The position numbers and the translations under genes are program-made. This document shows, in pieces, positions 43,933 through 59,001 of a stretch of DNA of 64,000 bases. Positions within the stretch are counted from its first letter, which is position 1; every line of letters starts with the position of its first letter. Origin of the DNA: an uncultured Nitrospiraceae bacterium (GTDB lineage: Bacteria > Nitrospirota > Nitrospiria > Nitrospirales > Nitrospiraceae); assembly GCA_963730935.1 (NCBI GenBank), contig CAVSTP010000002.1, positions 800,001 through 864,000 on the forward strand, in the 5' to 3' direction. Under the pieces are notes generated by a model that was not told the DNA's origin, did no database searches, and was given only the letters and a program-made list of their open reading frames with translations.

Positions 43933-44517
43933 TCACGGCCGTTCCAACAATGGCGGACCAAGCGGCACGAGCTGGCGACCGGTGAAGGCTTGGGTCAGAC
44001 TGGCAACGGCATGGTAGAAGGCCATGGAGCCGACGGCGATGTGGAGTAAACCAGGGAGGGTTTCGTTTATGAGTCCCAGGCGCGCGAGAACCGTGCAAGA
44101 AAAGCTCATCGTGATAATGAGGTGAAGAAGGCAGAGCGTCGTGTTGCGGTATGCCGTCAGATATACCATGACGACGGAAAAGGCTGCGTACACGAAATCG
44201 ATTGGTGCGTAGAGCACCATGTCGAGGTGAAACGACGTGCTCTCGCTGACCAGTTTGGCAGTACAAACGGTCAGCCAAAAAAATCCGTACATGGTCAGCG
44301 CAGTGCCGCCCAGTTGCTCGTGATAGCGGATATCTGTGATGCCGGCCAGGATCTGCACGATACCGCCGAACATCATCGCGATGACCAATGTGCCGACTTT
44401 GTTCGATTCAGGGATTGCACCGACCTGCGCGACGCCAAGGGTCAAGGCTCCCACGGCAAGACCAAACAATCCAATCGCCAGCACATCGATGCGCCTCCGG
44501 TATTCTTCGTCGTGCAT
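43933..44517 (-). CDS. GPR1/FUN34/YaaH (SatP) family channel
   Basis: 6 TMs; GLFGL, FGGIVQILAG and GTALTMYGFFW motifs; GGGAGG SD before ATG 44517. Confidence 0.82.
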   Translation of the reverse strand: MHDEEYRRRIDVLAIGLFGLAVGALTLGVAQVGAIPESNKVGTLVIAMMFGGIVQILAGITDIRYHEQLGGTALTMYGFFWLTVCTAKLVSESTSFHLDMVLYAPIDFVYAAFSVVMVYLTAYRNTTLCLLHLIITMSFSCTVLARLGLINETLPGLLHIAVGSMAFYHAVASLTQAFTGRQLVPLGPPLLERP

Positions 44518-44664
44518 AAGTTTCCTCCCCAGCTGTACTGCATTAAGTGCAAACTGATGGCCCAGGCAAAGTGGCGCCGAGCATGCCTTAAGGACTATTG
44601 AAAAGACAAGCGGCATTCGGCAGACTCTGCAGTCATGAGGCGATCGCCGGAAGGAGGGTCCACG

Positions 44665-45147
44665 ATGCAGACGCAAGGGCACAGGTCGGTGCGTCTGTGG
44701 TCGGCAGGCATCTTGTGCGTGGCCTTGTTGTCCTTGCCTCGCCCCGGCCTTGCCGAGAAAAGCGGTGATCGTTTCACCCTCGTGATGAATGGCGCGGCCG
44801 TCAAAGATAATCAAACCGGATTGATTTGGGAGCAGGAACCTGATCGGGAGCATGACGTCTGGAGTCGTTCCAATGAACGCTGTGCGGCCAAGGACGTGGG
44901 CGGACAGAAAGGATGGCGCGGACCCACGGTGGAAGAACTTAAGACCCTGATCGATCCTGCCCAGCGCGATCCGTCGCTTCCACTAGGCCATCCCTTTTCG
45001 AATATCAAGTCCGAAATCTATTGGACGAGTACGCCAGATCCCAAGGACGACATCGTGGCCTGGCAGGTGAGTTTTTTCAGCGGCGAACCGGTCACGGATC
45101 AGAAATCGGGTACCCGCCGGATGTGGTGTGTACTGACCCTCCGTTGA
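44665..45147 (+). CDS. Secreted DUF1566 (Lcl C-terminal-like) protein
   Basis: VKDNQTGLIWEQ, WRGPTVEELKTL, YWTST and MWCV motifs; signal peptide; AAGGAGG SD. Confidence 0.85.
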   Translation: MQTQGHRSVRLWSAGILCVALLSLPRPGLAEKSGDRFTLVMNGAAVKDNQTGLIWEQEPDREHDVWSRSNERCAAKDVGGQKGWRGPTVEELKTLIDPAQRDPSLPLGHPFSNIKSEIYWTSTPDPKDDIVAWQVSFFSGEPVTDQKSGTRRMWCVLTLR

Positions 45148-45163: not shown

Positions 45164-46843
45164 TTAATCGAGTCTTTCCCGATCCCGCTTCCTTTTCCAG
45201 ACATTCGCTAACGACGCCAGCTTGGCTCGTGCCGACTGGTGCTCATCGGCAAGGGTTTCCAGGGAATCGGATAGCCGCCTGGATTTCAGCACCGTGTAGA
45301 AGGTGAGGCCGATGGCCAGAATCAAGATGATCAAGAAATAAAAAATCCGTGTCAGGGGCGGCTCATCGGTCACCAGAAACAAGTTCATACCCCAAAAACC
45401 AGTGGTCGCCACGCCGATCAAACCCATGGTGGCCACCACGGTGAGGCGCACCATGGTCTCACCCTGTCGGCGCAAAGCCTCGCTGTCGAGATACTGGCTC
45501 ATGTCTTCAAGCTCCGACCTGAGTTCCTCATAGAGGCGATCGGTGCCAAGATGGTCGCTGATCATTCGATAGAGCTCCTTCACTTGCCCATGATCCGAAA
45601 CCTGATGGGACCAATAGCGGTGGCTGAAGCGCAGAAAGACACCCAAGGTGTGTCGAATGACGGCTCGGAACCGTCGCACGGAGTCTCGCTTCGTGATATC
45701 CAAGTTATTCGTCGCATCCACCAGACGATCGGCGAGCATCAGCAGGGCTGCCTTGTGAAAGTGAGGGATCAGGAACAAAAGGAAATATTCGTGCCGGAAC
45801 TGCTCAAGGTCTGTTTTTCGGTCCACGAATAGGCGCTCGCCGCAATCACCCACCATCGTGAATACGCGTCCGGTGCACATGAAGCGAGTCCCCGGATGCT
45901 CCAGTCCTTCTCCGTTCCAGTACCGGTCGTAGCAATAGCGCTCTTCAAAGTCCTGCAAGTAACGCTTGGAATAGGGGAGCGATTCGGGCGTGCCAGGTGC
46001 GGTCGCGAGCCCCAGCCGCACGAACTCTTCGCGGGTCAACGCTCCCGGATCATCCATCACGAGGTAGGCCATCACTGACATTAGGTGGTATTCAATCTGG
46101 CGGTATCGGAGGAGACCTTTCTTCCCGGAATGGTGAAGCACGAGCGGTTCGAGCAAAAATTCCCAATGAGAGGCGAGACTCGGTGCTCGATACCGGCAAG
46201 CGAACGAGAGGTATTTCTCACGGTTCTCATAATCGGATACGGCCAGCACCTTCTCTTCGGATGAGAGCCATTCCACCTGCTTGGGGCAGTGGCCTCCGTG
46301 CCCGTCTGGTTCCCAGTACGTGGGATAACAGCGGCCCAGCCGGAACAGCGCGTTCTGCGCCTGCGGCAACGGCAGATCGTCCGCAAACACCTCGACGACG
46401 AGAATCGCCACGTCGATGTCATAGAAGAAATACAGGTCCACATGCGCCACACTGAGGGTCACGGGGACGGTACGGGAGCCGGGGAACGTGACCCGTACCT
46501 TGGCGACATCGCAGCGACGAAATACACGGATGCAGGACTCCTGCTCGACGTCCCTGTCGCCCCCTTTGCCTTCTCCGTAGAGGAACCGTTGGACGTAGGG
46601 GAGGAATGTGACGAACTCGCTGTAATGCCGTTCTTGAAATTGATGAGGGTCGCCCGTGAACTCGTCCGCCAATTCGCGCCATGGATTGTCTTTGTCAGGA
46701 GTTTGCAGCCGCTCCCAATGTTTCTGAATCGGGGCGCCTTCGCGGATCGGCATTAACTGGATGGGCCAAAGCAGAATCTGTCGGAAGTGACGGACCGATT
46801 TATCGCTCGGATGAACCGTGGTAGCGGACATACCTGACTCCAT
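45164..46843 (-). CDS. Large CorA-like membrane protein
   Basis: Two C-terminal TMs with GFWGMN; long stalk helix; about 460-aa N-terminal soluble region. Alternative start 46831. Confidence 0.75.
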   Translation of the reverse strand: MESGMSATTVHPSDKSVRHFRQILLWPIQLMPIREGAPIQKHWERLQTPDKDNPWRELADEFTGDPHQFQERHYSEFVTFLPYVQRFLYGEGKGGDRDVEQESCIRVFRRCDVAKVRVTFPGSRTVPVTLSVAHVDLYFFYDIDVAILVVEVFADDLPLPQAQNALFRLGRCYPTYWEPDGHGGHCPKQVEWLSSEEKVLAVSDYENREKYLSFACRYRAPSLASHWEFLLEPLVLHHSGKKGLLRYRQIEYHLMSVMAYLVMDDPGALTREEFVRLGLATAPGTPESLPYSKRYLQDFEERYCYDRYWNGEGLEHPGTRFMCTGRVFTMVGDCGERLFVDRKTDLEQFRHEYFLLFLIPHFHKAALLMLADRLVDATNNLDITKRDSVRRFRAVIRHTLGVFLRFSHRYWSHQVSDHGQVKELYRMISDHLGTDRLYEELRSELEDMSQYLDSEALRRQGETMVRLTVVATMGLIGVATTGFWGMNLFLVTDEPPLTRIFYFLIILILAIGLTFYTVLKSRRLSDSLETLADEHQSARAKLASLANVWKRKRDRERLD

Positions 46844-46926
46844 CCCTGCATTCTAATACCGCATACCACCTCTCGTTGTCGACGCTCCACGCTGTCATAC
46901 CCCTGCTGTTCCACTCCTGACGTCCA

Positions 46927-46977
46927 TTTTTACTGAATTTTGATGTTCTGGGCTGACGGTTTAATCCGGCTTTGATG
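46927..46977 (+). promoter_or_regulatory. KdpE-like direct repeats (distal)
   Basis: tttttact/ttttgatg and gtttaatc/ctttgatg pairs, each with an 11-bp period. Confidence 0.5.
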
Positions 46978-47073
46978 CACCTTTGGATAGAGTACGTCGA
47001 GGGGCAAAAGGGGCAAAAGGATGAAGCAGCTATGACACTCGTGATCCTGGGCTCTGAGAAAACGTCCTAGTGA

Positions 47074-47092
47074 TTTTGACGCCGTTTTTACG
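47074..47092 (+). promoter_or_regulatory. KdpE-like direct repeat (proximal)
   Basis: ttttgacg-ccg-tttttacg, 11-bp period, about 45 nt upstream of the first kdp ORF. Confidence 0.6.
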
Positions 47093-47135
47093 CGGCATTT
47101 GGTAGCGTTCGATCGCCGCCAAGGAGACCTGATGC

Positions 47136-47216
47136 ATGGATTTTCTCCTACTCAGCCTGGGAATCGGATTTTTTCTTCTATCAGCATGGTTGATCTTCGC
47201 GTTAGACCGCCTCTAG
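47136..47216 (+). CDS. Hydrophobic micropeptide (26 aa) upstream of kdpF
   Basis: AAGGAG SD; MDFLLLSLGIGFFLLSAWLIFALDRL*. Confidence 0.65.
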   Translation: MDFLLLSLGIGFFLLSAWLIFALDRL

Positions 47217-47226
47217 AGGCTTGCTC

Positions 47227-47316
47227 ATGAACTCCATGTATGTGATCGGCGGAATCCTCTCATTAGGTCTGATGATCTATCTTCTCGTCGCCTTGCTCAA
47301 GCCGGAGAAATTCTGA
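47227..47316 (+). CDS. kdpF: K+-transporting ATPase subunit F
   Basis: MNSMYVIGGILSLGLMIYLLVALLKPEKF*, with the YL..ALL.PE.F signature; TGATG coupling to kdpA. Confidence 0.9.
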   Translation: MNSMYVIGGILSLGLMIYLLVALLKPEKF

Positions 47317-49112
47317 TGAGCCTCAATGGTCTGGTCCAGATCATGTTCTATTTCATTGTCCTGTTGGGACTGGCAAAACCATTAGGGCGGTACATGGCCC
47401 GCGTGTACGAAGGTCGGCCCTGCGGCTTGGACCGGATCCTTTCCCCGGTGGAACACCTCATCTACCGCCTGTGCGGGGTTCATCATGCTGATGAAATGGA
47501 TTGGAAGGCATACGGTATGGCCATGGTGTTCTTCAATGCGGCAGGGCTATTCACGCTCTACCTTCTCCAGCGGGTTCAAGGTCTCCTCCCGCTGAACCCT
47601 TCCTCACTCGGCATGGTGGGGCCTGACCTCGCCTTCAATACGGCAGCGAGCTTTGTGACCAATACCAATTGGCAATCCTACGGTGGCGAAACGACGCTCA
47701 GTTACCTCACGCAAATGCTGGGTTTGACGGTCCAAAATTTCGTGTCCGCCGCGACCGGGATGGCCATTTTGGTGGCGCTCATTCGCGGACTCGCCCGGCG
47801 GAATGCGCACACCATCGGCAACTTCTGGGCTGATCTCACGAGGAGCACCCTCTACATATTGTTGCCGCTCTCCCTGGTATTGGCTCTTATCCTCGTGTCC
47901 CAAGGCGTAGTGCAGACGTTCGGGGCCTATGAAACTGCCACGATGATGCAACCGGTCACGTTCGACAAACCGATCATGGATACGAGCGGGCAACCGGTAT
48001 TGGATGAACATGAGAAGCCAAAAACCGAGTCTGCAACGACGAAGTCACAGGTCTTAGCAATTGGCCCCGTCGCCTCGCAGATTGCCATCAAGCAACTAGG
48101 TACGAACGGTGGTGGCTTTTTCAATGTCAATTCTGCGCACCCGTTTGAGAATCCGACGCCGCTCTCCAATTTCCTCGAGATGCTGGCCATCCTCCTGATT
48201 CCAACAGCGCTCTGTTACACCTTTGGAGTGATGGTCGGGGACACGCGCCAGGGATGGGCCCTGCTTGCGGCCATGACCATAATCTTAATCGCCATGCTTG
48301 GGCTGGCCCTGTGGGCCGAGCAAGAGGGCAATCCTGCCCTAACCGCGATCGGAGTCGATCAGGCAGTAAGCGGCAGGCAGCCGGGCGGGAACATGGAAGG
48401 TAAAGAAGCCAGATTTGGAGTGGTCAACTCCGTCCTATGGGCCGCTGCGACTACGGGCGCATCCAACGGCTCCGTCAATTCCATGCTTGATTCCTACACT
48501 CCGTTGGGCGGGCTGGTTCCGCTTTTTCTGATGCAGTTTGGAGAGGTCGTGTTCGGAGGGGTGGGATCGGGGCTCTATGGCATGATCGTGTTCGCAATCA
48601 TTGCCGTGTTCATCGCGGGATTAATGGTCGGCCGAACCCCGGAGTATCTTGGGAAAAAAATTGAACCGTATGAAATGAAGATGGCCTCGCTACTCATTCT
48701 CATCATGCCCATCATCGTGTTAGGGCTGACGGCGGTTGCGGTGCTCACCGAACTCGGCACCTCTTCCAGGCTCAATCCCGGAGCGCATGGATTCAGCGAG
48801 ATCCTCTACGCCTACACTTCACAGGGAAACAATAACGGCAGCGCCTTTGCCGGTCTCAATGCCAACACACCCTTTTACAACATCACCGGCGGGATCGCGA
48901 TGCTGGTCTCCCGCTTTTGGTTGGCTCTGCCGACACTTGCGCTCGCCGGTGCTTTGGCGAGAAAAAAGAATATCCCGCCAGGGGTGGGCACTTTGCCGAC
49001 CCACACACCGCTCTTTGTCGCACTGCTGATCGGCGTGATTATCATGGTCGGAGCGTTGACATTCGTGCCCGCACTGGCCCTTGGACCAATTGTTGAACAT
49101 TTGTTGATGTGA
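47316..49112 (+). CDS. kdpA: K+-transporting ATPase subunit A
   Basis: SFVTNTNWQSYGGE, KQLGTNGGGFF, SNGSVNSM, GRTPEYLGKKI and NNGSAFAG motifs. Confidence 0.97.
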   Translation: MSLNGLVQIMFYFIVLLGLAKPLGRYMARVYEGRPCGLDRILSPVEHLIYRLCGVHHADEMDWKAYGMAMVFFNAAGLFTLYLLQRVQGLLPLNPSSLGMVGPDLAFNTAASFVTNTNWQSYGGETTLSYLTQMLGLTVQNFVSAATGMAILVALIRGLARRNAHTIGNFWADLTRSTLYILLPLSLVLALILVSQGVVQTFGAYETATMMQPVTFDKPIMDTSGQPVLDEHEKPKTESATTKSQVLAIGPVASQIAIKQLGTNGGGFFNVNSAHPFENPTPLSNFLEMLAILLIPTALCYTFGVMVGDTRQGWALLAAMTIILIAMLGLALWAEQEGNPALTAIGVDQAVSGRQPGGNMEGKEARFGVVNSVLWAAATTGASNGSVNSMLDSYTPLGGLVPLFLMQFGEVVFGGVGSGLYGMIVFAIIAVFIAGLMVGRTPEYLGKKIEPYEMKMASLLILIMPIIVLGLTAVAVLTELGTSSRLNPGAHGFSEILYAYTSQGNNNGSAFAGLNANTPFYNITGGIAMLVSRFWLALPTLALAGALARKKNIPPGVGTLPTHTPLFVALLIGVIIMVGALTFVPALALGPIVEHLLM

Positions 49113-49142
49113 GGGTGCAGTTCGGTACTGCGGAATCTGTCT

Positions 49143-51266
49143 ATGACGACACAAATAGGCTCCCACAAGACTCACGCTCTGTTTGAGCCGATCATCATCA
49201 GACAGGCGATCATCGATGCCTGCCGGAAGCTCGCTCCACGTCACCAGATCAAGAATCCGGTCATGTTTGTCGTGTGGGTCGGCAGCGTCCTGACTACGCT
49301 CCTTTTTCTGCAAGCGGTCATTGGGTTTGGCGAAGCGCCAGCCGGTTTCATTCTGTCTATCGCGCTGTGGCTCTGGTTCACCGTGCTTTTTGCCAACTTG
49401 GCCGAGGCCATGGCGGAAGGACGGGGCAAGGCGCAGGCGGAGTCCCTACGGCGATCTCGTCAGGAACTCACTGCCAAGAAGCTCGGCACAGTCGAATCCG
49501 CACGCGAGCCCCACACGGTCTGGAGTCGGAAACTCAACCGGTCTGGCGCGTTCAGCGTCGTGTCCGTGAATGAGTTGAAAAAGGGCGACGTCGTCCTCGT
49601 TGAAGCAAACGATATTGTCCCCGCCGACGGGGAAGTCATTGAAGGAGTTGCTTCCGTGAACGAGAGCGCGATCACGGGTGAAAGTGCACCGGTGATACGG
49701 GAAAGCGGCGGTGACCGCAGCGCCGTCACGGGAGGGACGAAGGTCCTTTCTGATTGGCTCGTCATTTGCGTGACCGCCAGTCCGGGGGAGAGTTTCCTTG
49801 ACCGCATGATTGCCATGGTGGAAGGAGCGAAGCGTCAGAAGACGCCGAACGAAATTGCGCTGAATATTCTCCTGGCCGCCCTCACGATCATCTTTCTCCT
49901 GGCGACCGTCACCTTGCTGCCATTTTCCTTATATAGCGTGGCAGCCGCTGGTCAAGGTTCACCCATCACCGTCACCGTTCTGATCGCTCTTCTGGTGTGC
50001 CTCATCCCGACGACGATCGGCGCGCTGCTCTCTGCGATTGGAATAGCAGGCATGGACCGCATGGTACAAGCCAATGTCATTGCCATGTCCGGAAAAGCCG
50101 TCGAGGCGGCCGGCGATGTGGATGTGCTGTTGTTGGACAAGACCGGCACGATTACATTGGGCAACCGCCAGGCGACGATGTTTCTACCGGCCGAAGGGGT
50201 CTCGGATCAGGCATTGGCGGACGCATGCCAGCTGTCGTCGTTGGCCGATGAAACACCGGAAGGCCGAAGCATTGTGGTGCTTGCAAAGGAAAAGTACGGA
50301 TTACGTGCACGCGACATACACGAACTGGGCGCCACATTCATGCCCTTTACTGCGCAGACACGCATGAGCGGCGTCAACATGGATAGCCGGGAAATCCGGA
50401 AGGGATCAGCCGGTGCCATCGAATCATACGTGACGAGGCAAGCGGGCCACTTTTCCCATTTTGTTCGCCTCAATGTCGAGACGATTGCCAAGCAGGGCGG
50501 CACACCGCTGGTGGTCGCAGAAGGGGGCAAAGTCCTCGGAGTCATTGCGCTGCAGGACATCGTCAAGGGGGGGATCAAAGAGCGGTTCGGTGAATTGCGT
50601 CAGATGGGAATCAAGACGGTGATGATCACCGGCGACAACCCGCAGACGGCGGCCGCAGTTGCGGCTGAGGCCGGCGTCGACGATTTTCTCGCCGAGGCCA
50701 CGCCGGAAGCCAAGCTGAAATTAATTCGCGACCTCCAAGCCGAGGGACGGCTTGTCGCGATGACGGGAGACGGGACCAACGACGCTCCGGCATTGGCACA
50801 AGCCGACGTCGCCGTGGCGATGAATACCGGGACGCAAGCGGCCAAGGAAGCGGGCAACTTGGTGGATCTGGACAGCAATCCCACGAAGTTGATTGAAATC
50901 GTGGAAATTGGGAAACAGCTGCTGATGACCAGAGGGGCATTGACGACCTTCAGTATCGCCAACGATGTGGCGAAGTACTTTGCGATCATTCCGGCTGCGT
51001 TTGCGACGACGTACCCGGTCCTGAACGAGTTGAACGTCATGCATCTGGCGACCCCTCAAAGTGCGGTCCTGTCTGCGGTCATTTTTAACGCATTGATCAT
51101 TATCGGGCTCATTCCGCTTGCCCTGAAAGGCATCAGCTATCGTCCCATCGGCGCCGGTCCGTTGCTACGACGACACCTTCTGATCTACGGCGCTGGCGGC
51201 ATCGTGGTCCCATTTATTGGCATCAAGTTGATCGACATGCTGTTGGTCGCATTGCATTTGATCTGA
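49143..51266 (+). CDS. kdpB: K+-transporting P-type ATPase subunit B
   Basis: TGES, LIPTTI, DKTGT, TGDN and GDGTND motifs. Confidence 0.98.
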
Positions 51267-51270
51267 GGCA

Positions 51271-51378
51271 GGATGATGAAAAAGGCCGCTGGCGTCGTTC
51301 TCAGCGCGCCAGAATCCTCAACGTACCTCAGAGAGTACGCCTGCGGTTCTGGGCTTCGCCTGCGACATTTGATCATCC
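51271..51378. repeat. Palindromic intergenic repeat element, copy 2, between kdpB and kdpC
   Basis: Ends ggatgatgaa / tttgatcatcc; core cgttctc..ctcaacgtacc..gtacgcct as in 34376-34497. Confidence 0.7.
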
Positions 51379-51406
51379 ATAGGTCGTATACAGACGGGAG
51401 AGACAC

Positions 51407-51982
51407 GTGATAGAGCACATAAGACCTGCGCTGGCTATGTTGGTGATTTGGACCGTGCTCACCGGGCTGATGTATCCACTCGCGGTCACAAGTCTAGCTC
51501 AGCTGCTTTTCCCACATCAGGCTAACGGCAGCCTGGTTGTTCGTAATGGACAGGTCATCGGATCCGAACTCATTGGACAGTACTTTGATCAACCAAAGTA
51601 TTTTTGGAGCCGTCCATCGGCGACCTCGCCATTTCCCTACAATGCGGCTGCCTCCAGTGGGTCGAACCTCGGGCCTACCAATCCGGCCTTGATCGAAGCG
51701 GTCAAAGGGAAAGTTGCCGCCTTACGAGCAGCGGAGCCGGCCAACGACAATCCTATCCCTGTGGACCTCGTGACTGCCTCGGGAAGCGGGCTTGACCCTC
51801 ACATCAGCATCGCCGCGGCGGCGTTCCAGGTGAGGCGTGTCGCCCGCGCAAGAGGTCTGGAGGAAGGGGCAGTGGAACGGTTGGTCATGCAATGCATCGA
51901 AGGTCGCCAATTCGCGCTGCTTGGGGAATCGCGGGTAAACGTACTGAAGTTGAATCTTGCTCTCGACATGCCACCGTCCTGA
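51407..51982 (+). CDS. kdpC: K+-transporting ATPase subunit C
   Basis: [39 protein letters not shown] and [11 protein letters not shown] motifs. Confidence 0.97.
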
Positions 51983-52179
51983 ATGGTTATAGTTCGCGAT
52001 CCAACCACACATTTTTAAGCTGTCCGACTCCAGGGCGCTGCCCCATACAGAGGAAAGAGTGATGAGCCTTCTCTCAGAGACACCATAGGCCGTCACATCT
52101 TATAATGTGGCCAGAATAGTTTGCATAAAACCTCGCGGAAAATGACACTCTAGCCCCTCAGTGCGGGTTTGAGAACTCC

Positions 52180-54885
52180 ATGGCCGAGATCCGTCCTAAT
52201 CCAGATGCGCTCCTCAAACGTGTGCAGGCGGATGAAGCTCGCCAGCTTCAGGGAAAGCTCAAAATATTCTTTGGCGCCAATCCGGGAGTAGGGAAAACCT
52301 ACGCCATGCTGGAAGCGGCGCACGAGCAGCGTCGCGATGGAGTGGACATCGTCATCGGCATCGTCGAGACGCACGGGAGAGCGGAAACTGAAGCCTTGCT
52401 TCCTGGTCTTGAGGTACTGCCCCGCCGCACGGTGGAGTACCGAGGCACCGTGCTCAACGAATTTGACCTCGATGCCGCCCTTTCCCGCCATCCCACGGTG
52501 ATCTTGATCGACGAACTGGCTCACACGAATGCGCCTGCGCTTCGGCACACCAAGCGTTGGCAGGACGTGCAGGAGCTGTTGAAGGCCGGCATTACGGTCT
52601 ACACAACCGTCAATGTACAGCACCTGGAAAGCCTCAATGACGTGGTGGCGCAGATCACCGGCGTGCGTGTCCGGGAAACGGTACCCGATTCTGCAATTGA
52701 GCGGGCGGACGATGTTGAACTGATTGACCTCCCGCCGGACGATTTGCTCCAACGGCTGAAAGACGGAAAGGTCTATGTGCCGCAGCAGATTCAGCATGCC
52801 ATTCAACATTTCTTCACCAAAGGGAATCTGATCGCCCTCCGCGAATTGGCTCTCCGCCGCACGGCCGAGAGGGTCGATCAGCAAATGGAAGTTTACCGGC
52901 GCGACCATGCGGTCGTCCGTACCTGGCCGGCGGCCGAAACGATTATGGTCTGCGTAAACATGAAGCCGCGCGGGCCGCGGCTGATTCGTGCGGCGCGCCA
53001 GATGGCCACCAATCTGCATGCCAAATGTATCGCTGTCTACGTGCAAGTTCCGCGGCATCTTCGATTGCCGCAGGCCGATCGCGACCGGCTCGTGCAGACG
53101 TTACGCCTTGCCGAGCAACTCGGTGCGGAAACGGTCACGTTGACGGGAGAGCGGGTGGCACAGGAGCTGCTGAACTACGCCCGCAGCCGCAACGCAACCA
53201 AACTCATCGTGGGAAAGCCGGTTCGGTCTCTTTGGAAGGAATGGCTCTTCGGTTCCGTGGTGTCAGAGCTGGTCCACCAAAGCGGGGACATTGATATCTA
53301 CGTCATTACCGGAGAGGCAGGGGAAGGACAGCCACTCATCCGCCGCAGCCTCAAGAGAACCAGCAATCGGCGGGAATACCTCTATGCCCTCGTGGGAGTC
53401 GCCATGGCAACGGCCGTCGCCTGGGCCATGGATCCTTATTTCAGTCAGGCCAATCTGATTATGATGTACCTGATGGCGGTGATCGTCATCGCGATTCGAT
53501 TGGGACGAGGCCCCTCGGTCCTGGCCTCGGTCGTGAGCGTGGCCACGTTCGACTTCTTCTTCGTGCCGCCCTACCTGTCGTTCGCCGTCTCGGACATCCA
53601 ATATGTGTTGACCTTCGCCATCATGCTCATCGTGGCGTTGGTGATCAGCAACTTGGCCGTGCGCATCCGTGAACAAGCGGAGTTGGCCCGCGATCGAGAA
53701 CGGCGAACGGCGGTGTTGTATGCGATGAGCCGAGATTTGGCGACGCATCGAGGCACAGCCATGTTGGCTCAAGTCGCGGCGAAACATCTTCGCGAGGTCT
53801 TCGATGGTCAGGTGGCGATTTTCCTTGCGGATGCCGAAAAACGCGTTCGCCTACAGCGGGGGGAACAACTCTTCTTCGACCTCGACCCCAAAGAATCCGG
53901 TGTCGCTCAATGGGTGTTTGATCACAATGAGCGGGCAGGGTCGGGAACCGATACGCTGCCGGGGGCCAGCGCGCTCTATCTTCCTTTAGTCGGGTCGACA
54001 GGACCGATCGGAGTCGTGGCGGTCCGGCCGAAAGACACGGGGCTGTTATTGGATCCCGAGCAACTGCATTTGCTCGAATCGCTCATCAATCAAGTCGCCC
54101 TGGCCATCGAACGAACTCGCCTCTCGGACGAGGCGCAACAGGCTCACGTGCGAGTGGAAACCGAACGCATGCGGAATGCTATTTTGAGTTCAGTCTCTCA
54201 CGATTTGCGGACACCACTGGCCACCATTACGGGAGCGGCCAGCAGCTTGTTGGACGAGCGGAGCCCCCTCAACGCGAGCGATCGCCTTGAGCTCTCTCAA
54301 TCGATTTACCGCGAGGCGAACCGATTGGATCGGCTGCTCAAGAACTTACTGGACATGATGCGGATCGAGGCGGGGGCGGTGCAGCTCAAGAAGGAGTGGC
54401 ATCCGTTGGACGAGATCGTCGGAGCCGCGCTCTCCAGGATGGAAGAGCGGTTGAGGAATGTGACCGTTCGTACGACGTTCCCTCCGGATTTGCCGATGGT
54501 GCAGATTGATGGAGTGCTCATGGAGCAAGTCATGATCAACCTCCTGGAAAATGCGGCGAAGTACGCTCCTCCTGGAAGCGTCATTGAGGTTTCGGCATCG
54601 GCCGGTAACAAGGAAGTGGTCGTCGAATTGGCGGATCGAGGGCAGGGCATTCCCGTCGGGGAAGAAGTTCGCATCTTCGACAAGTTTTACCGCGCGAAAC
54701 CTGCGCGAGAAGGAGGAGTCGGGCTCGGACTCACGATTTGCCGCGGCATCATCGAAGCCCATGGCGGGCGCATCTGGGCCGAGAATCGCACCGGCGGTGG
54801 TGCGGTGTTTCGATTCGCAATCCCACTGCCGGAAGAGCAGCCTTCTATCGCCACCGAACACACCGGCAACCATCACGCATCTTAG
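52180..54885 (+). CDS. kdpD: Sensor histidine kinase KdpD (full length)
   Basis: GVGKTYAML, DELAHTN, Usp domain, 4 TMs, SHDLRTPL, NLLENA and GLGLTIC motifs. Confidence 0.97.
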   Translation: MAEIRPNPDALLKRVQADEARQLQGKLKIFFGANPGVGKTYAMLEAAHEQRRDGVDIVIGIVETHGRAETEALLPGLEVLPRRTVEYRGTVLNEFDLDAALSRHPTVILIDELAHTNAPALRHTKRWQDVQELLKAGITVYTTVNVQHLESLNDVVAQITGVRVRETVPDSAIERADDVELIDLPPDDLLQRLKDGKVYVPQQIQHAIQHFFTKGNLIALRELALRRTAERVDQQMEVYRRDHAVVRTWPAAETIMVCVNMKPRGPRLIRAARQMATNLHAKCIAVYVQVPRHLRLPQADRDRLVQTLRLAEQLGAETVTLTGERVAQELLNYARSRNATKLIVGKPVRSLWKEWLFGSVVSELVHQSGDIDIYVITGEAGEGQPLIRRSLKRTSNRREYLYALVGVAMATAVAWAMDPYFSQANLIMMYLMAVIVIAIRLGRGPSVLASVVSVATFDFFFVPPYLSFAVSDIQYVLTFAIMLIVALVISNLAVRIREQAELARDRERRTAVLYAMSRDLATHRGTAMLAQVAAKHLREVFDGQVAIFLADAEKRVRLQRGEQLFFDLDPKESGVAQWVFDHNERAGSGTDTLPGASALYLPLVGSTGPIGVVAVRPKDTGLLLDPEQLHLLESLINQVALAIERTRLSDEAQQAHVRVETERMRNAILSSVSHDLRTPLATITGAASSLLDERSPLNASDRLELSQSIYREANRLDRLLKNLLDMMRIEAGAVQLKKEWHPLDEIVGAALSRMEERLRNVTVRTTFPPDLPMVQIDGVLMEQVMINLLENAAKYAPPGSVIEVSASAGNKEVVVELADRGQGIPVGEEVRIFDKFYRAKPAREGGVGLGLTICRGIIEAHGGRIWAENRTGGGAVFRFAIPLPEEQPSIATEHTGNHHAS

Positions 54886-54897
54886 CGGCGAGCGCCT

Positions 54898-55593
54898 ATG
54901 TCACAGGAAGCGACGATCGTTCTCATCGAGGATGAATCGGAAATCCGGCGCTTTCTTCGGACAACACTCCCCGGTCATGGTTTCCGAATCTACGAAGCGA
55001 CAACAGGACAAGGAGGTCTGATCGAAATCAAATCGAGGAATCCCGATCTCATTCTGCTTGATCTCGGACTCCCGGACTTGGATGGCATCGACGTGATTCG
55101 CCAGGTGCGCGACTGGACACCAACGCCAATCATTGTGCTCTCGGCCAGAGAGCAGGAACAGCAAAAGGTCTCCGCACTCGACCTGGGCGCAGACGACTAC
55201 GTAACCAAGCCATTTGGCATCAATGAACTGCTTGCACGAATACGCACGGCCCTGCGGCATGCGGCGCGGCCTGACGAATCGGAGACGGCCTCCTGCTTTA
55301 CATTTGGTGATGTGCGCGTAGAACTCGGTCGACGTCAGGTGTTTGTGGCCGACAAGGAGATTCATCTGACGCAGATTGAATACAAACTTCTCACGACGCT
55401 GGTCCGCCATGCAGGCAAAGTCGTCACCCACCGGCAATTGCTGAAGGAGGTGTGGGGTCCGCTGCATGTCGAGGAAAGCCACTACCTGCGGGTGTACATG
55501 CGCCAGCTTCGCAACAAGCTAGAGTCCAATCCCGCGCATTCCAAGTTTCTCGTGACCGAACTCGGCGTCGGGTATCGACTGCGGACGGAATAG
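54898..55593 (+). CDS. kdpE: Response regulator KdpE
   Basis: LLDLGLPD, GADDYVTKPF, HYLRVYMRQLRNKLE and TELGVGYR motifs. Confidence 0.95.
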   Translation: MSQEATIVLIEDESEIRRFLRTTLPGHGFRIYEATTGQGGLIEIKSRNPDLILLDLGLPDLDGIDVIRQVRDWTPTPIIVLSAREQEQQKVSALDLGADDYVTKPFGINELLARIRTALRHAARPDESETASCFTFGDVRVELGRRQVFVADKEIHLTQIEYKLLTTLVRHAGKVVTHRQLLKEVWGPLHVEESHYLRVYMRQLRNKLESNPAHSKFLVTELGVGYRLRTE

Positions 55594-55659
55594 GGATTCG
55601 ACACGTCGAGATCCCGACGCGAACTGCCGGCGTGGCGCCTGGTTCAACAAGGTGGGCCT

Positions 55660-56877
55660 TCACGGCGAATCGAACGTTCCGATGAGCGCGAAGATCAGCA
55701 TCTGCTGCCCGGGTGTCAGCAGGTTGTTCGTTCCTTTGAAAAATCCGCCTCCCGCTCCGGTCGAGTCGTCGTACCGATATTCCAATCGACAGATCGTATT
55801 GGTCCACAGGTAGGGCAGCCGGTATTCCGCGGTGGTGGTGATGGCCTTGATGAACTGCTCCGAACCAGTCATGAGCCCGTTCCGGTCCCAAAAAAACTCG
55901 GGTCTTACGGAGACGGTCCAGGGGCCGGCAATGTGCCATCGAGTTTCAATGGTGGCACCGGTGTAGAAATCACGGGGATTTCCGGGAGCCGAGGCATTCT
56001 TCTGAGTCCCGATCTGATAATCGAACCCCACGGTCACCTCGTCGCCTTTCCATTCGGCGATGGTGTCGGAAAAAAAACGCCAGAACTCCAACGAGGTGGC
56101 AGCCTGGTCTGGCCCGTAATACATCGTTTCTTTGACGGTCCAGGCAGGCGCGGGCTTGTACTGTATCTGTCCGCCGTAACTCGGGAGACTGTTCGAATTT
56201 TCAAGGTGAAAATAATCGTTGATCACGAAAAACGCGCCGGTCCACTGATCGTTGAACGCATAGACGGCGTTGACGCCGAACATTAAGTAGGGGGAATAGT
56301 CGGCGATCCAGGCGCGCGAGTAGTTGCCATTGTCTTTGGCATACAGCGACTCGTAGCCGATGAAACTGTTGAACAGTCCGGCTTGAAGCGTGAGTCCGTT
56401 GCCGACCGGAGCGACATACGACACGTTCGCGCGCCCGAAGTGCCGCCAGACGTCTGAGCCGGATACTTTGGGCTGACTCGTGGCGAACCCGAACGCCTTT
56501 GAGTCCTCCCCGGCTTGGACCAACCACTCCGTCCCCCAACGAGACGACTCGGTCGCATCTTTCCGGACATAGACCGCCGCCATGTTCAGATCCAGTTCAT
56601 TGACCCGCGGTGTGGTGCTGCGGTTACGGAACAGGTGATTGTCGGGGAAATTGAAATCCAGCGAATAACCGAGATCGATGAACCCTCCATAATGCCAGAG
56701 CGGTTTCTCCTGGATCGCGGGCTCCGGTTGAGACGGTGCATCTGTTTCGGTTGCGGACTGGTCGTTGGCCGGCTCGCCGGGCGAACTCTCTCCTCCCGAG
56801 GCTGGGACGGGTATCAGGCCCGCGCACAGCCATGCGCTCAACGTGAGGGTGCAGACGAAGGAGCGGCTCAGGGACAC
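55660..56877 (-). CDS. Outer-membrane beta-barrel protein (putative porin), paralog 1
   Basis: AGGAAGGAG SD before GTG 56877; signal peptide; amphipathic strands; GLFNSFIGYES, VRPE and RLEYR motifs; ends FDSP. Confidence 0.82.
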   Translation of the reverse strand: MSLSRSFVCTLTLSAWLCAGLIPVPASGGESSPGEPANDQSATETDAPSQPEPAIQEKPLWHYGGFIDLGYSLDFNFPDNHLFRNRSTTPRVNELDLNMAAVYVRKDATESSRWGTEWLVQAGEDSKAFGFATSQPKVSGSDVWRHFGRANVSYVAPVGNGLTLQAGLFNSFIGYESLYAKDNGNYSRAWIADYSPYLMFGVNAVYAFNDQWTGAFFVINDYFHLENSNSLPSYGGQIQYKPAPAWTVKETMYYGPDQAATSLEFWRFFSDTIAEWKGDEVTVGFDYQIGTQKNASAPGNPRDFYTGATIETRWHIAGPWTVSVRPEFFWDRNGLMTGSEQFIKAITTTAEYRLPYLWTNTICRLEYRYDDSTGAGGGFFKGTNNLLTPGQQMLIFALIGTFDSP

Positions 56878-56956
56878 GCGGCTCCTTCCTTGACCTGCGG
56901 CCGTCGATCGCCGGGGTTTTCGGGAATCATGCCTCGTGAAATGTAGCGCATTATCT

Positions 56957-56974
56957 ATAAAAATGAGGTAAAAA
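56957..56974 (-). promoter_or_regulatory. KdpE-like direct repeat upstream of porin 1
   Basis: Minus strand reads TTTTTAC-ctca-TTTTTAT (11-bp period), the same shape as the kdp promoter repeats. Confidence 0.5.
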
Positions 56975-57048
56975 AGCGCAGCAACTGCCCATGAATGACA
57001 TCTAAGCAATTCCCGTACTGCGCGTGTCGCGCAGGCCGGAAAGGCTTT

Positions 57049-58266
57049 ATGACGGCCGGTCATCGCCTCCTCTTCGCCGCGGTGATCCTTTGCGCATGGG
57101 GCGGGGGCGTCATGCCGGCCAGCGCGGAAGAATCCCAGCCAACATCGTTGCCACCGGCTGCTGTGGAAGGTCTCGGACAGGACCAACAGCCCGCCAAGAC
57201 GTTGTGGCATTACGGCGCCTATTTGGATCTCACCTATCCGATTGATTTCAACCATCCTGCCAATCACATATGGCGCAGCAAGGTCACCACACAAAAGGTG
57301 AACGAGCTGAGCTTGAACATGGCAATGGCTTACGTCAGGAAGGACGTGGACACATCCTCGCGGTGGGGGATGGAGTTCGCGCTTCAGACTGGCCGCGATG
57401 TTGAAGGACAAGTGCCCAATGCCAGCCTCAGGAATGGCAACCCCTACGATAGTGCCGATACCTTCAGCCACTTCTCACGGGCCAATGTCTCCTACCTGGC
57501 GCCGATCGGGACTGGTTTGAAACTTACGGGCGGGCTGTTTAACAGCTATATTGGCTACGAATCCTTCTACGCAAAAGACAACTTCAACTATACGCGATCG
57601 CTGCTTCCAGACTATACACCCTACTTCATGGCTGGAATTTCTGCGGAATATCAGATCAACGCGTCGATCAAGACGGTGTTCTATGTCATCAACCGGTACA
57701 ATTTTCTTTCCCAGCCAAACAATCTTCCCAGCTACGGAGGACAGATCAAGTGGTCGGCTTCGCCGCAATGGACATTTGTTCAAAATGTGTACTACGGCCC
57801 GGACCAAACCGACACCAGTTTGAAGTACTGGCGCTTTTTCTCGGACAGCATTTTGGAGTGGAAACGCGATGCGTTCACCGTGGCCCTCGTGTATGACATC
57901 GGCACCGAACGGGCGATAGCTCAGGCAGGCGGCCAGCGGCAATTCTGGATGGGCAGCGCTCTCCTGAGCCAATGGCGCTTCGTCAAGGCCTGGGCGGTGG
58001 CCGTCCGTCCTGAACTCTACTATGACCCTGACGGCACGATGACCGGCGCGAAGCAATTCATCAAGGGTGTGACGACCACCTTGGAATACAAGCTGGAGTA
58101 CGCCTGGACGACGACGAGGTTTCGCTTGGAGTACCGCTTCAACAACTCCACCGGGCCTCAAGGCGGGTTTTTTACCGGAGGTCCCAACTCATCGGGAGCC
58201 ATCGGACTGACTCCGTCCCAAAATCTGCTGTTCTTCGCCATCCTCTGGAGCTTTGATTCGCCCTAA
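57049..58266 (+). CDS. Outer-membrane beta-barrel protein (putative porin), paralog 2
   Basis: Signal peptide ending ASA; same motifs as paralog 1; ends FDSP. Confidence 0.82.
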   Translation: MTAGHRLLFAAVILCAWGGGVMPASAEESQPTSLPPAAVEGLGQDQQPAKTLWHYGAYLDLTYPIDFNHPANHIWRSKVTTQKVNELSLNMAMAYVRKDVDTSSRWGMEFALQTGRDVEGQVPNASLRNGNPYDSADTFSHFSRANVSYLAPIGTGLKLTGGLFNSYIGYESFYAKDNFNYTRSLLPDYTPYFMAGISAEYQINASIKTVFYVINRYNFLSQPNNLPSYGGQIKWSASPQWTFVQNVYYGPDQTDTSLKYWRFFSDSILEWKRDAFTVALVYDIGTERAIAQAGGQRQFWMGSALLSQWRFVKAWAVAVRPELYYDPDGTMTGAKQFIKGVTTTLEYKLEYAWTTTRFRLEYRFNNSTGPQGGFFTGGPNSSGAIGLTPSQNLLFFAILWSFDSP

Positions 58267-58272
58267 TGCCGT

Positions 58273-59001
58273 TTACTTCGTTTCTTTTTGTTCGCGCAAG
58301 CGCTTCAGCTGCGTGTCAAGGCGGCGCATCAACTCTTCCATTGCCCTCGCCTTCGCGAGCTCCAGGACGGTTTTGTCTTCCACCAGGGCGGCCGGCCCCA
58401 CCTTCTCGATTTTCGCGTCGGTCTGTTCCTCGAACAGCCGCGCTCCTGTCTTGACGTCCCACAGTGTCGCTTTCAACAGACAGAGCGCATCGCTCTGCGT
58501 GCCGTCGGCCACGTAGGCGCCCAGGATGGTCCAATACCACAAGGCGGCCTTGTAATTATTGTAGCGATCGACGGCAGCAGCCCCGTCAAATATCAACAGC
58601 CAGTCGACGCCATAGCGCGTCGCAGCCGCTCTGAGTTCCGTCAAAGTGTGACCCTTCAATGACGACAGCGTCAGGAATCCGGCGCTCTTTCCTCCTGTGT
58701 CGAGCGGAACCCGTTTGGACCAGGCCAGCACGTCATCCCGGTCGCGGCTTGTCCATTCGAACTCGCGGTGGAGGAAGCCTGTGGGTTTCAAGTAGAGACC
58801 AAGTTGAGGCGCGTCTGAACGCACCGGAGCGGCGGCGGCTGTCGACGTGTCGATAAAACGAGATTCTTCCTGCCGGATCTCATCTTGGAGAAACTCACGA
58901 GAAAGGCCCTGGCTGCTCGCGCAGCCGCTGAGTCCCAGAAGAGCAACTAGAAGGGAAAGTGCCCATCGGATCGCTTGAGCGCGTTTCACGTCTGTCGGCA
59001 T
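58273..59001 (-). CDS. Lipoprotein of unknown function
   Basis: Lipobox LSGC; YWTILGAYV and LWDVKTG motifs. Confidence 0.75.
   Translation of the reverse strand: MPTDVKRAQAIRWALSLLVALLGLSGCASSQGLSREFLQDEIRQEESRFIDTSTAAAAPVRSDAPQLGLYLKPTGFLHREFEWTSRDRDDVLAWSKRVPLDTGGKSAGFLTLSSLKGHTLTELRAAATRYGVDWLLIFDGAAAVDRYNNYKAALWYWTILGAYVADGTQSDALCLLKATLWDVKTGARLFEEQTDAKIEKVGPAALVEDKTVLELAKARAMEELMRRLDTQLKRLREQKETK

Follow-up and report, generated by a model that had tools for sequence, protein, structure and literature searches.

The locus described here lies in a stretch of 64,000 nucleotides from an uncultured Nitrospiraceae bacterium (contig CAVSTP010000002.1, positions 800,001 to 864,000), hereafter the window, and comprises a complete gene set for the potassium uptake system Kdp flanked by a CorA-like gene and two porin genes of the BBP2 family. 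The window corresponds to G000:C2:800001-864000, where G000 is this genome (4.05 Mb, 57% GC), and other labels starting with G or L denote comparison genomes and loci. Those homologues that bear an organism name belong to Nitrospira. Textbooks treat Kdp as a system of the inner membrane alone. Judging from gene content and promoter sequences, the locus is a variant of Kdp with a probable outer-membrane arm and a probably wider regulon. The genes are listed below with coordinates counted from the start of the window.

45164-46843, minus strand: CorA-like membrane protein of 559 amino acids (PF01544, 30.9 bits, cut-off 27, residues 387-516 only)
47136-47216, plus strand: hydrophobic micropeptide of 26 amino acids upstream of kdpF, in a KdpZ/KdpY-like position
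47227-47316, plus strand: kdpF (TIGR02115, 44.5 bits, cut-off 26.85; PF09604, 43.7 bits)
47316-49112, plus strand: kdpA (PF03814, 821 bits; TIGR00680, 781 bits)
49143-51266, plus strand: kdpB (TIGR01497, 1062 bits)
51407-51982, plus strand: kdpC (PF02669 and TIGR00681, both above cut-off)
52180-54885, plus strand: sensor kinase gene kdpD (PF02702, Usp, DUF4118, GAF, HisKA, HATPase)
54898-55593, plus strand: response regulator gene kdpE (best PDB match KdpE 4kny, E 1.3e-77)
55660-56877, minus strand: porin1, BBP2 family, 405 amino acids, GTG start, convergent with kdpE, predicted KdpE target (PF07642, 193 bits)
57049-58266, plus strand: porin2, BBP2 paralogue divergent from porin1 (PF07642, 209 bits)

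Profile searches recovered kdpF, kdpA, kdpB and kdpC intact, in order and each above its curated cut-off, and the full series kdpF-kdpA-kdpB-kdpC-kdpD-kdpE lies on the plus strand. KdpD (954, cut-off 1123) and KdpE (best family NF007820, 298 bits, cut-off 325) both score below the enterobacterial equivalogs of NCBIfam. The recognition helix and wing of the 4kny KdpE are conserved in the window KdpE. A preliminary description, made from the sequence of the window, had placed a micropeptide and a porin pair with kdpFABC-DE. Both are indeed present, the former as an open reading frame of 26 codons before kdpF, the latter as two proteins with 46% identity that exceed the PF07642 gathering cut-off of 26.2 bits. 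The micropeptide has no match in Pfam or NCBIfam. A peptide of the MD...LDRL type occurs in 14 of the 15 kdp loci scanned, and a Burkholderia peptide in the same position before kdpF is named 'potassium ABC transporter ATPase' by RefSeq. KdpZ and KdpY are small hydrophobic peptides. Extra small kdp genes are already known from kdpZYABCXDE of Clostridium acetobutylicum (cited in PMC5401905; this and the other papers given by PMC number are represented here by parts of their text). That cluster likewise has two small genes ahead of kdpA, and the likeness drawn here between them and the 26-amino-acid peptide is one of position.

The preliminary description had also reported T-rich direct repeats with an 11-bp period in the gap between corA and kdp, and the same shape at 56957-56974 oriented toward the porin gene after kdpE. 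The repeats are present in the gap, and the pair behind kdpE does face porin1. These box pairs belong to what appear to be three promoters, PA, Pk and PB.

46927-46944, plus strand: distal pair of PA, TTTTTAC-N4-TTTTGAT
46959-46976, plus strand: proximal pair of PA, GTTTAAT-N4-CTTTGAT
46927-46993, plus strand: predicted promoter PA, two box pairs and a -10-like TAGAGT (46988-46993), porin promoter of relatives, now facing kdp
47032-47070, plus strand: 12-codon remnant of the small membrane-peptide open reading frame that follows PA in relatives, its start aligning with a 30-amino-acid frame of G014
47074-47091, plus strand: pair of Pk, TTTTGAC-N4-TTTTTAC
47074-47108, plus strand: predicted main kdp promoter Pk, KdpE-type pair and a -10-like TAGCGT (47103-47108), conserved before kdp in genus and family
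56974-56957, minus strand: pair of PB, TTTTTAC-N4-TTTTTAT, facing porin1
56940-56974, minus strand: predicted promoter PB, KdpE-type pair and a -10-like TACATT (56945-56940), facing porin1, conserved in G001, G005, G010, G041 and G045

Exactly 11 bases beyond three of the pairs stands a TAnnnT hexamer (at 46988, 47103 and 56945), which gives a complete promoter shape that the preliminary description did not include. Taking the putative -10 as reference, rather than a mapped start, puts the proximal pairs at roughly -42 to -25; a further pair, 32 bases upstream of the proximal one, is a feature of PA-type promoters only. The Escherichia coli system (PMC3264566) matches the window in its six genes and their order, in an operator of two T-rich half-sites with a period of 11 bp and in a KdpE recognition helix that is conserved here. 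Its operator at -72 to -50 differs from the window arrangement, where the proximal pair ends 11 bases before the -10-like hexamer. PB can be written as TTTACC-N5-TTTATA (6-5-6, both TTTA cores) next to the published E. coli operator TTTATA-N5-TTTACA (PMC3264566), and the first half-site of Pk carries one T-to-G change relative to the operator form. Further differences from E. coli are the additional KdpE-type promoters (PA, PB and one ahead of kimA, discussed below), the outer-membrane porin as a predicted target and the micropeptide before kdpF. A scan for sigma-70 promoters and terminators returned nothing above chance.

The box pairs are more than chance occurrences. The strict form TTTTKAY-N4-TTTTKAY has four perfect matches in the genome against 0.23 expected, three of them in the window and one upstream of a distant BBP2 gene, BBP2#4. 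Among spacers of 0-9 bases, the 4-base spacer accounts for these four, a 1-base spacer for one, and the other eight for none (0.23 expected per spacing). The consensus was written after the sites had been seen, and a held-out position weight matrix (PWM) is the fairer test. An initial PWM from eight half-sites of the window gap was dropped as too loose, ranking the porin box only 43rd, and was replaced by a half-site PWM trained only on the kdp promoters of nine relatives, with a -10 term set by hand. In a genome scan of the kind that the preliminary description had proposed, this version placed Pk first, PB second and the distal PA pair third among 8,090,696 positions, and leaving out the -10 term did not alter these ranks. 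When it was included, the kimA promoter ranked fifth and the box of BBP2#4 seventh. No K+ gene is evident near the sites of ranks 4 and 6. The rank-4 site (G000:C4:1501334, minus strand) adjoins words that we take to resemble DnaA boxes and is probably unrelated to KdpE.

Conservation of the site ahead of porin1 follows the porin through changes of gene order. Across 24 genomes of the genus, the strict promoter pattern has 16 matches, spread over 12 genomes and confined to the promoters of kdp and porin1, and its reversed form has none. It is present in 12 of the 15 genomes with kdpA and in 0 of the 9 without. In a quick tree of 40 BBP2 sequences, porin1 falls in a clade of 17 (Shimodaira-Hasegawa-like approximate likelihood ratio test, 99). 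Twelve of these genes are neighbours of kdp, each with a site that faces it (scores 14.5-31.3). The 12 are found in three arrangements: porin1 ahead of kdp under PA (G009, G013, G014, G022, G023, G044), convergent under PB (G000, G001, G005, G041, G045), and convergent under PA (G016). G010 retains PB although its kdp cassette is lost. Among the remaining clade members, the site in G019 is weak (13.3) and falls at a contig end; none is present in G006, G021 and G042. A sister clade in the same chromosomal slot lacks kdp, and 6 of the 7 members scored have no site (scores -7.4 to 6.4). In sister genera, a porin lies within 10 kb of kdp in 12 of 14 kdpA genomes, and 11 of these 12 have a site of their own (scores 21-27), against a background of 0.35% of 400-base stretches. 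Unrelated BBP2 subfamilies also occupy the porin slot with their own site (L070, L224, L172); in L070 a porin of the BBP2#4 type follows kdpE with its own box and -10. That differing porin subfamilies occur under one promoter shape is the most telling indication that a porin in the regulon is selected for. The proposal that KdpE controls an outer-membrane channel is thus supported for porin1 by the second-ranked box, by its conservation and by its tracking of the porin through several gene orders, and porin1 is very probably under KdpE control.

Not every box in the gap belongs originally to kdp, and those of PA (46927-46993) are not CorA boxes either, as PA drives a porin in relatives. The segment 46855-47007 aligns at 72% identity with the G014 promoter before porin1, and the alignment spans both box pairs and the -10 and reaches the beginning of the small membrane-peptide frame. 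This alignment argues that the distal gap boxes are the relatives' porin promoter, left behind after the porin moved, and PA would now act as a second promoter for kdp. In relatives (L008, L009, L011, L015, L173, L191, L233, L237) the first open reading frame after PA encodes a membrane peptide of 30-60 amino acids with one hydrophobic stretch, which is shortened here. Hydrophobic frames of this kind follow PA in 9 of 10 PA-porin1 loci examined. The slot after PA holds porin1 in L170, L173, L191, L231, L233 and L237, a BBP2#4-type porin in L172 and L224 (the latter with a corA 98% identical), and kimA in L209, whose promoter matches the kimA promoter of this genome. In L014 and L015 (G016) the block of kdp and porin1 that lies between PA and PB seems to have the opposite orientation to that in the window, with the promoters swapping targets and PB left as a degraded copy. 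L171, L172 and L178 carry a small four-helix membrane gene, presumably YnfA-like, and further box pairs with a short basic open reading frame between the porin and the kdp promoter.

The genome encodes four BBP2 proteins: porin1, porin2, one in a urea and ammonium cluster and BBP2#4. Far from kdp, at G000:C4:1778000-1784000 (L005:10163-13815, minus strand), a K+ importer of the KimA type (E 2.8e-157 to 6s3k) is followed by BBP2#4. The region ahead of kimA holds a KdpE-type promoter, and that ahead of BBP2#4 a perfect box pair. The kimA promoter recurs in L209 and L241. With the same promoter ahead of a KimA-type importer and a further BBP2 porin, the KdpE regulon probably comprises three to four transcription units. 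The third BBP2 gene (L006, G000:C3:522000-554000) lies inside a cluster of urea ABC transporter and urease genes, with three amt matches 10-23 kb away, and has no KdpE-type site.

Linkage of BBP2 to kdp extends beyond the genus. Of 58 kdpA genomes drawn evenly from the phylum, with G000 and G045 set aside, 24 have a BBP2 gene no more than 10 kb from kdpA, against about 0.5 expected. The 24 fall in 3 of 11 families, and the other eight families have 0 of 16. In family f11, BBP2 sits between kdpB and kdpC in 3 of the 6 loci opened. In family f15 it follows kdpC and precedes a KimA-like permease (25% match to KimA) in both loci opened. The same order of kdp then BBP2 was described for Leptospirillum (kdpABC-BBP2-'gadC2a'), where one operon was suggested (PMC7231039). 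That porin belongs to another BBP2 subfamily, and the parts of the paper available propose neither a KdpE site nor a role in K+ entry, whereas the porin here has its own promoter. Of the BBP2#4-type loci from GTDB, 80 in all and mainly from Planctomycetota, Chlamydiota and Nitrospira, 18 have kdpABC genes and 2 have kimA within 10 kb. Six plasmid kdp regions, hand-picked from 60 listed, have BBP2 next to kdpF in two, a weak TorF-like gene in one and neither in three. A Lichenicola plasmid has a box ahead of both the porin and kdpF. In a Bacteroides kdp operon (L153:9284-10048), a secreted protein of 254 amino acids lies between kdpC and kdpD with a weak match to TorF porins (E 0.0027, below cut-off), possibly another barrel family in the porin role.

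Porin1 is predicted to be an outer-membrane barrel of the porin type, as all top fold matches are porins and a signal peptide was recognized by eye. Its model (predicted local distance difference test, pLDDT, 88) has 16 long strands, and its nearest folds are OprP (Z 26.5, root-mean-square deviation 3.0 over 299 residues, 14% identity), DcaP (Z 23.6) and PorB (Z 22.9), with identities of 9-14%. The BBP2 family (PF07642, TCDB 1.B.66) was described in a 2016 survey as having unknown structure and function, with 10 or 18 strands listed (PMC4827864). Porin1 agrees with that survey (PMC4827864) in its profile match and predicted barrel, and its model gives 16 strands instead. A 16-strand porin of this kind could plausibly pass small ions. 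The mean net charge of the barrel, taken irrespective of lumen orientation, is about -5 in 24 kdp-linked porins and about -1.5 in 11 porin2-type proteins. We consider it likely that K+ entry is the job of porin1, based on its apparent co-regulation with two unrelated K+ importers.

The reading we favour, with somewhat less assurance than its separate parts, is a normal KdpFABC with KdpD and KdpE to which one accessory porin in the KdpE regulon adds a route for K+. When K+ is low, KdpD phosphorylates KdpE, as is established for the family. Phosphorylated KdpE would bind the box pairs with their 11-bp period and activate Pk and PA, for the kdp operon with its micropeptide, PB, for porin1, and the kimA promoter too. 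Porin1, as a 16-strand BBP2 barrel, would raise the flow of K+, and probably of other small ions, into the periplasm, from where KdpA would take up K+. OprP accompanies PstSCAB under PhoB, and OmpF and OmpC are under OmpR. The OprP-PstSCAB pairing is a close parallel in design, with a starvation two-component system co-inducing a porin and a high-affinity inner-membrane importer, and OprP is also the nearest fold of porin1. It differs in carrying the phosphate anion rather than K+.

A number of observations weigh against this reading. The kdp-linked porins conserve charged residues of both signs, with no sign of K+ selectivity, and the nearest fold, OprP, is an anion channel. BBP2 is missing from the majority of kdp loci, namely from 34 of 58 in the phylum and from 27 of 29 in a draw on the Planctomycetota side, which left out G057 (broken kdpA) and four genomes chosen through BBP2; a Proteobacteria draw overlapped this one, and Proteobacteria, Bacteroidota and Acidobacteriota were unevenly sampled. 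BBP2 is in this sense an accessory, not a core part of Kdp. The 80 BBP2#4-type loci include amt in 9, P-II genes in 6 and urea genes in 3 within 10 kb (15 of 80 with any), and 48 of 80 have neither K+ nor nitrogen genes in that range. In Kuenenia, a BBP2 gene is induced by ammonium limitation (PMC7438415). G042 has kdpBCDE elsewhere in the genome, yet its porin1-clade gene lacks a site, and L254, the sole exception in sister genera, has a porin beside kdp without one. A general presence of the kimA site in the genus was rejected, as the site is absent from 10 other Nitrospira kimA genes, including the second copy of this genome. Finally, related genomes are not independent, and the figures given are counts, not tests.

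The main alternative accepts induction of porin1 by KdpE but makes it a general small-solute porin that remodels outer-membrane permeability under stresses sensed by KdpD (osmotic, acid, high NH4+), or a carrier of NH4+ or a counter-anion. The mixed conserved charges, fold neighbours that are general or anion porins, and BBP2 members beside amt, P-II and urea genes speak for it, as does the well-established use of general porins for Kdp uptake in E. coli, and Na+ and NH4+ also affect kdp in Mycobacterium smegmatis (PMC5401905). A small-cation channel would account for the pairing of BBP2 with Amt, and so would a general porin. We nevertheless regard this explanation as unlikely, though worth serious attention, since several subfamilies of BBP2 have joined kdp and kimA, which encode unrelated K+ importers, some of them inside the kdp operon, and a shared substrate fits this better than a stress response would.

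A second alternative extends control by KdpE to the CorA-like gene, to porin2 or to both, for example by repression of divergent promoters from the same boxes, giving a swap of porin2 and porin1 akin to OmpF and OmpC. The CorA-like protein itself shows two predicted C-terminal membrane helices (455-490 and 496-532) and a GMN motif (G485-M486-N487) invariant in 28 homologues, the combination that defines the CorA/Mrs2/Alr1 (2-TM-GxN) group. In a Foldseek search with its low-confidence model (pLDDT 63), CorA entries lead, but with E of at least 1.1e-3 and TM-scores below 0.3. Distances are suggestive, with PA 84 bases before the corA start and PB 75-92 bases before the start of porin2. The head-to-head arrangement of the two porins is kept in G001, G005, G010, G041 and G045, and corA occupies the same slot over a range of 70-98% identity. 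However, no site faces corA in any of 59 homologous loci, while 11 have a site facing away; in the window its best facing score is 1.0 and all gap boxes face away from it. In the complete genomes G001 and G009 a distance of about 0.9-1.3 Mb separates the gene from kdp, and kdp genes are found at only 9 of 78 corA loci. It is intact, with about 40 bases of upstream DNA kept, in G010, G015 and a contig of run X1, which have lost kdp and all gap boxes (46885-55643). Only L241 has kdpC, corA and kimA on one strand, the sole co-oriented locus of 78, which leaves a small doubt. A recent insertion of corA was also considered and rejected, since corA remnants persist in G014 and G013 and, counted by eye, some 15 of 78 metagenome loci carry the gene in this slot with 70-98% identity. 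The CorA-like gene is probably an old neighbour in the lineage outside the KdpE regulon. Sites facing porin2-type genes number 0 of 10 (best score -0.8; -7.7 for porin2 of the window). Porin2 falls in a clade of its own, with relatives also found away from kdp, and seems to be a neighbour rather than a regulon member. Control of either gene by KdpE, as the preliminary description had envisaged, did not find support, and we consider the second alternative quite improbable.

Still less probable is recognition of the boxes by another regulator of the OmpR family. One candidate is a KdpE-like paralogue (G000:C4:832798; L007, G000:C4:831369-833490) that is 48% identical, keeps the recognition-helix residues and is paired with a kinase with a PilJ domain. 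A weaker look-alike site (rank 16) is found at C4:829990, before an open reading frame of 177 amino acids and about 1.4 kb upstream of the kinase gene. The restriction of the strict promoter to kdpA genomes, its occurrence at kdp and porin1 only, and its agreement with the published KdpE operator form argue for KdpE instead. That the porin box is a chance AT-rich stretch within inherited synteny is extremely improbable, for although intergenic DNA is AT-rich, the loose PWM gave rank 43 and close relatives share synteny, the exact geometry of box, spacer, box, 11 bases and TAnnnT is retained despite variation in the spacers, and it recurs across several gene orders and porin subfamilies.

The linkage of kdp and BBP2 was already noted in Leptospirillum. 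The word 'porin' is absent from one review of KdpD/KdpE, and term searches in the text available of PMC3610689, PMC8886135 and PMC9062700 found no link between kdp and porins. Literature searches outside subscription journals, RegPrecise, TCDB notes and supplements did not turn up any report of a porin controlled by KdpE. If a porin has a KdpE promoter to itself, conserved across a bacterial family and in a slot refilled by unrelated porins, then in many soil and water bacteria the uptake of K+ would be limited by how permeable the outer membrane is. The large BBP2 family would gain a regulator and a testable candidate substrate. NH4+ and K+ are of like size, so the pairing of BBP2 with both Kdp and Amt bears directly on the physiology of nitrifiers. 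Tentatively, and with considerable doubt that all parts hold jointly, we suggest that BBP2 proteins are outer-membrane channels for small cations (K+ and NH4+), repeatedly recruited by diderms as outer partners of the high-affinity importers Kdp, KimA or Amt, and that KdpE of Nitrospiraceae governs a multi-locus regulon with interchangeable porin cassettes. The box between porin1 and porin2 may then swap the porins as K+ falls, and the system would represent the first dedicated outer-membrane arm of K+ uptake in bacteria.

The surroundings of the locus are more constant than its content. A SatP-type acetate transporter (43933-44520, minus strand), an Lcl-domain protein (44635-45147, plus strand) and a rhombotarget-like lipoprotein (58273-59001, minus strand) frame a slot that is stable across the family, while kdp and porins come and go between them. 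The loss of 46885-55643, which removes the whole kdp cassette with PA and Pk, has an identical junction in the two genomes and the X1 contig. There, porin1 and the CorA-like gene lie 65-70 bases apart on one strand, which represents a presence-absence polymorphism among close relatives.

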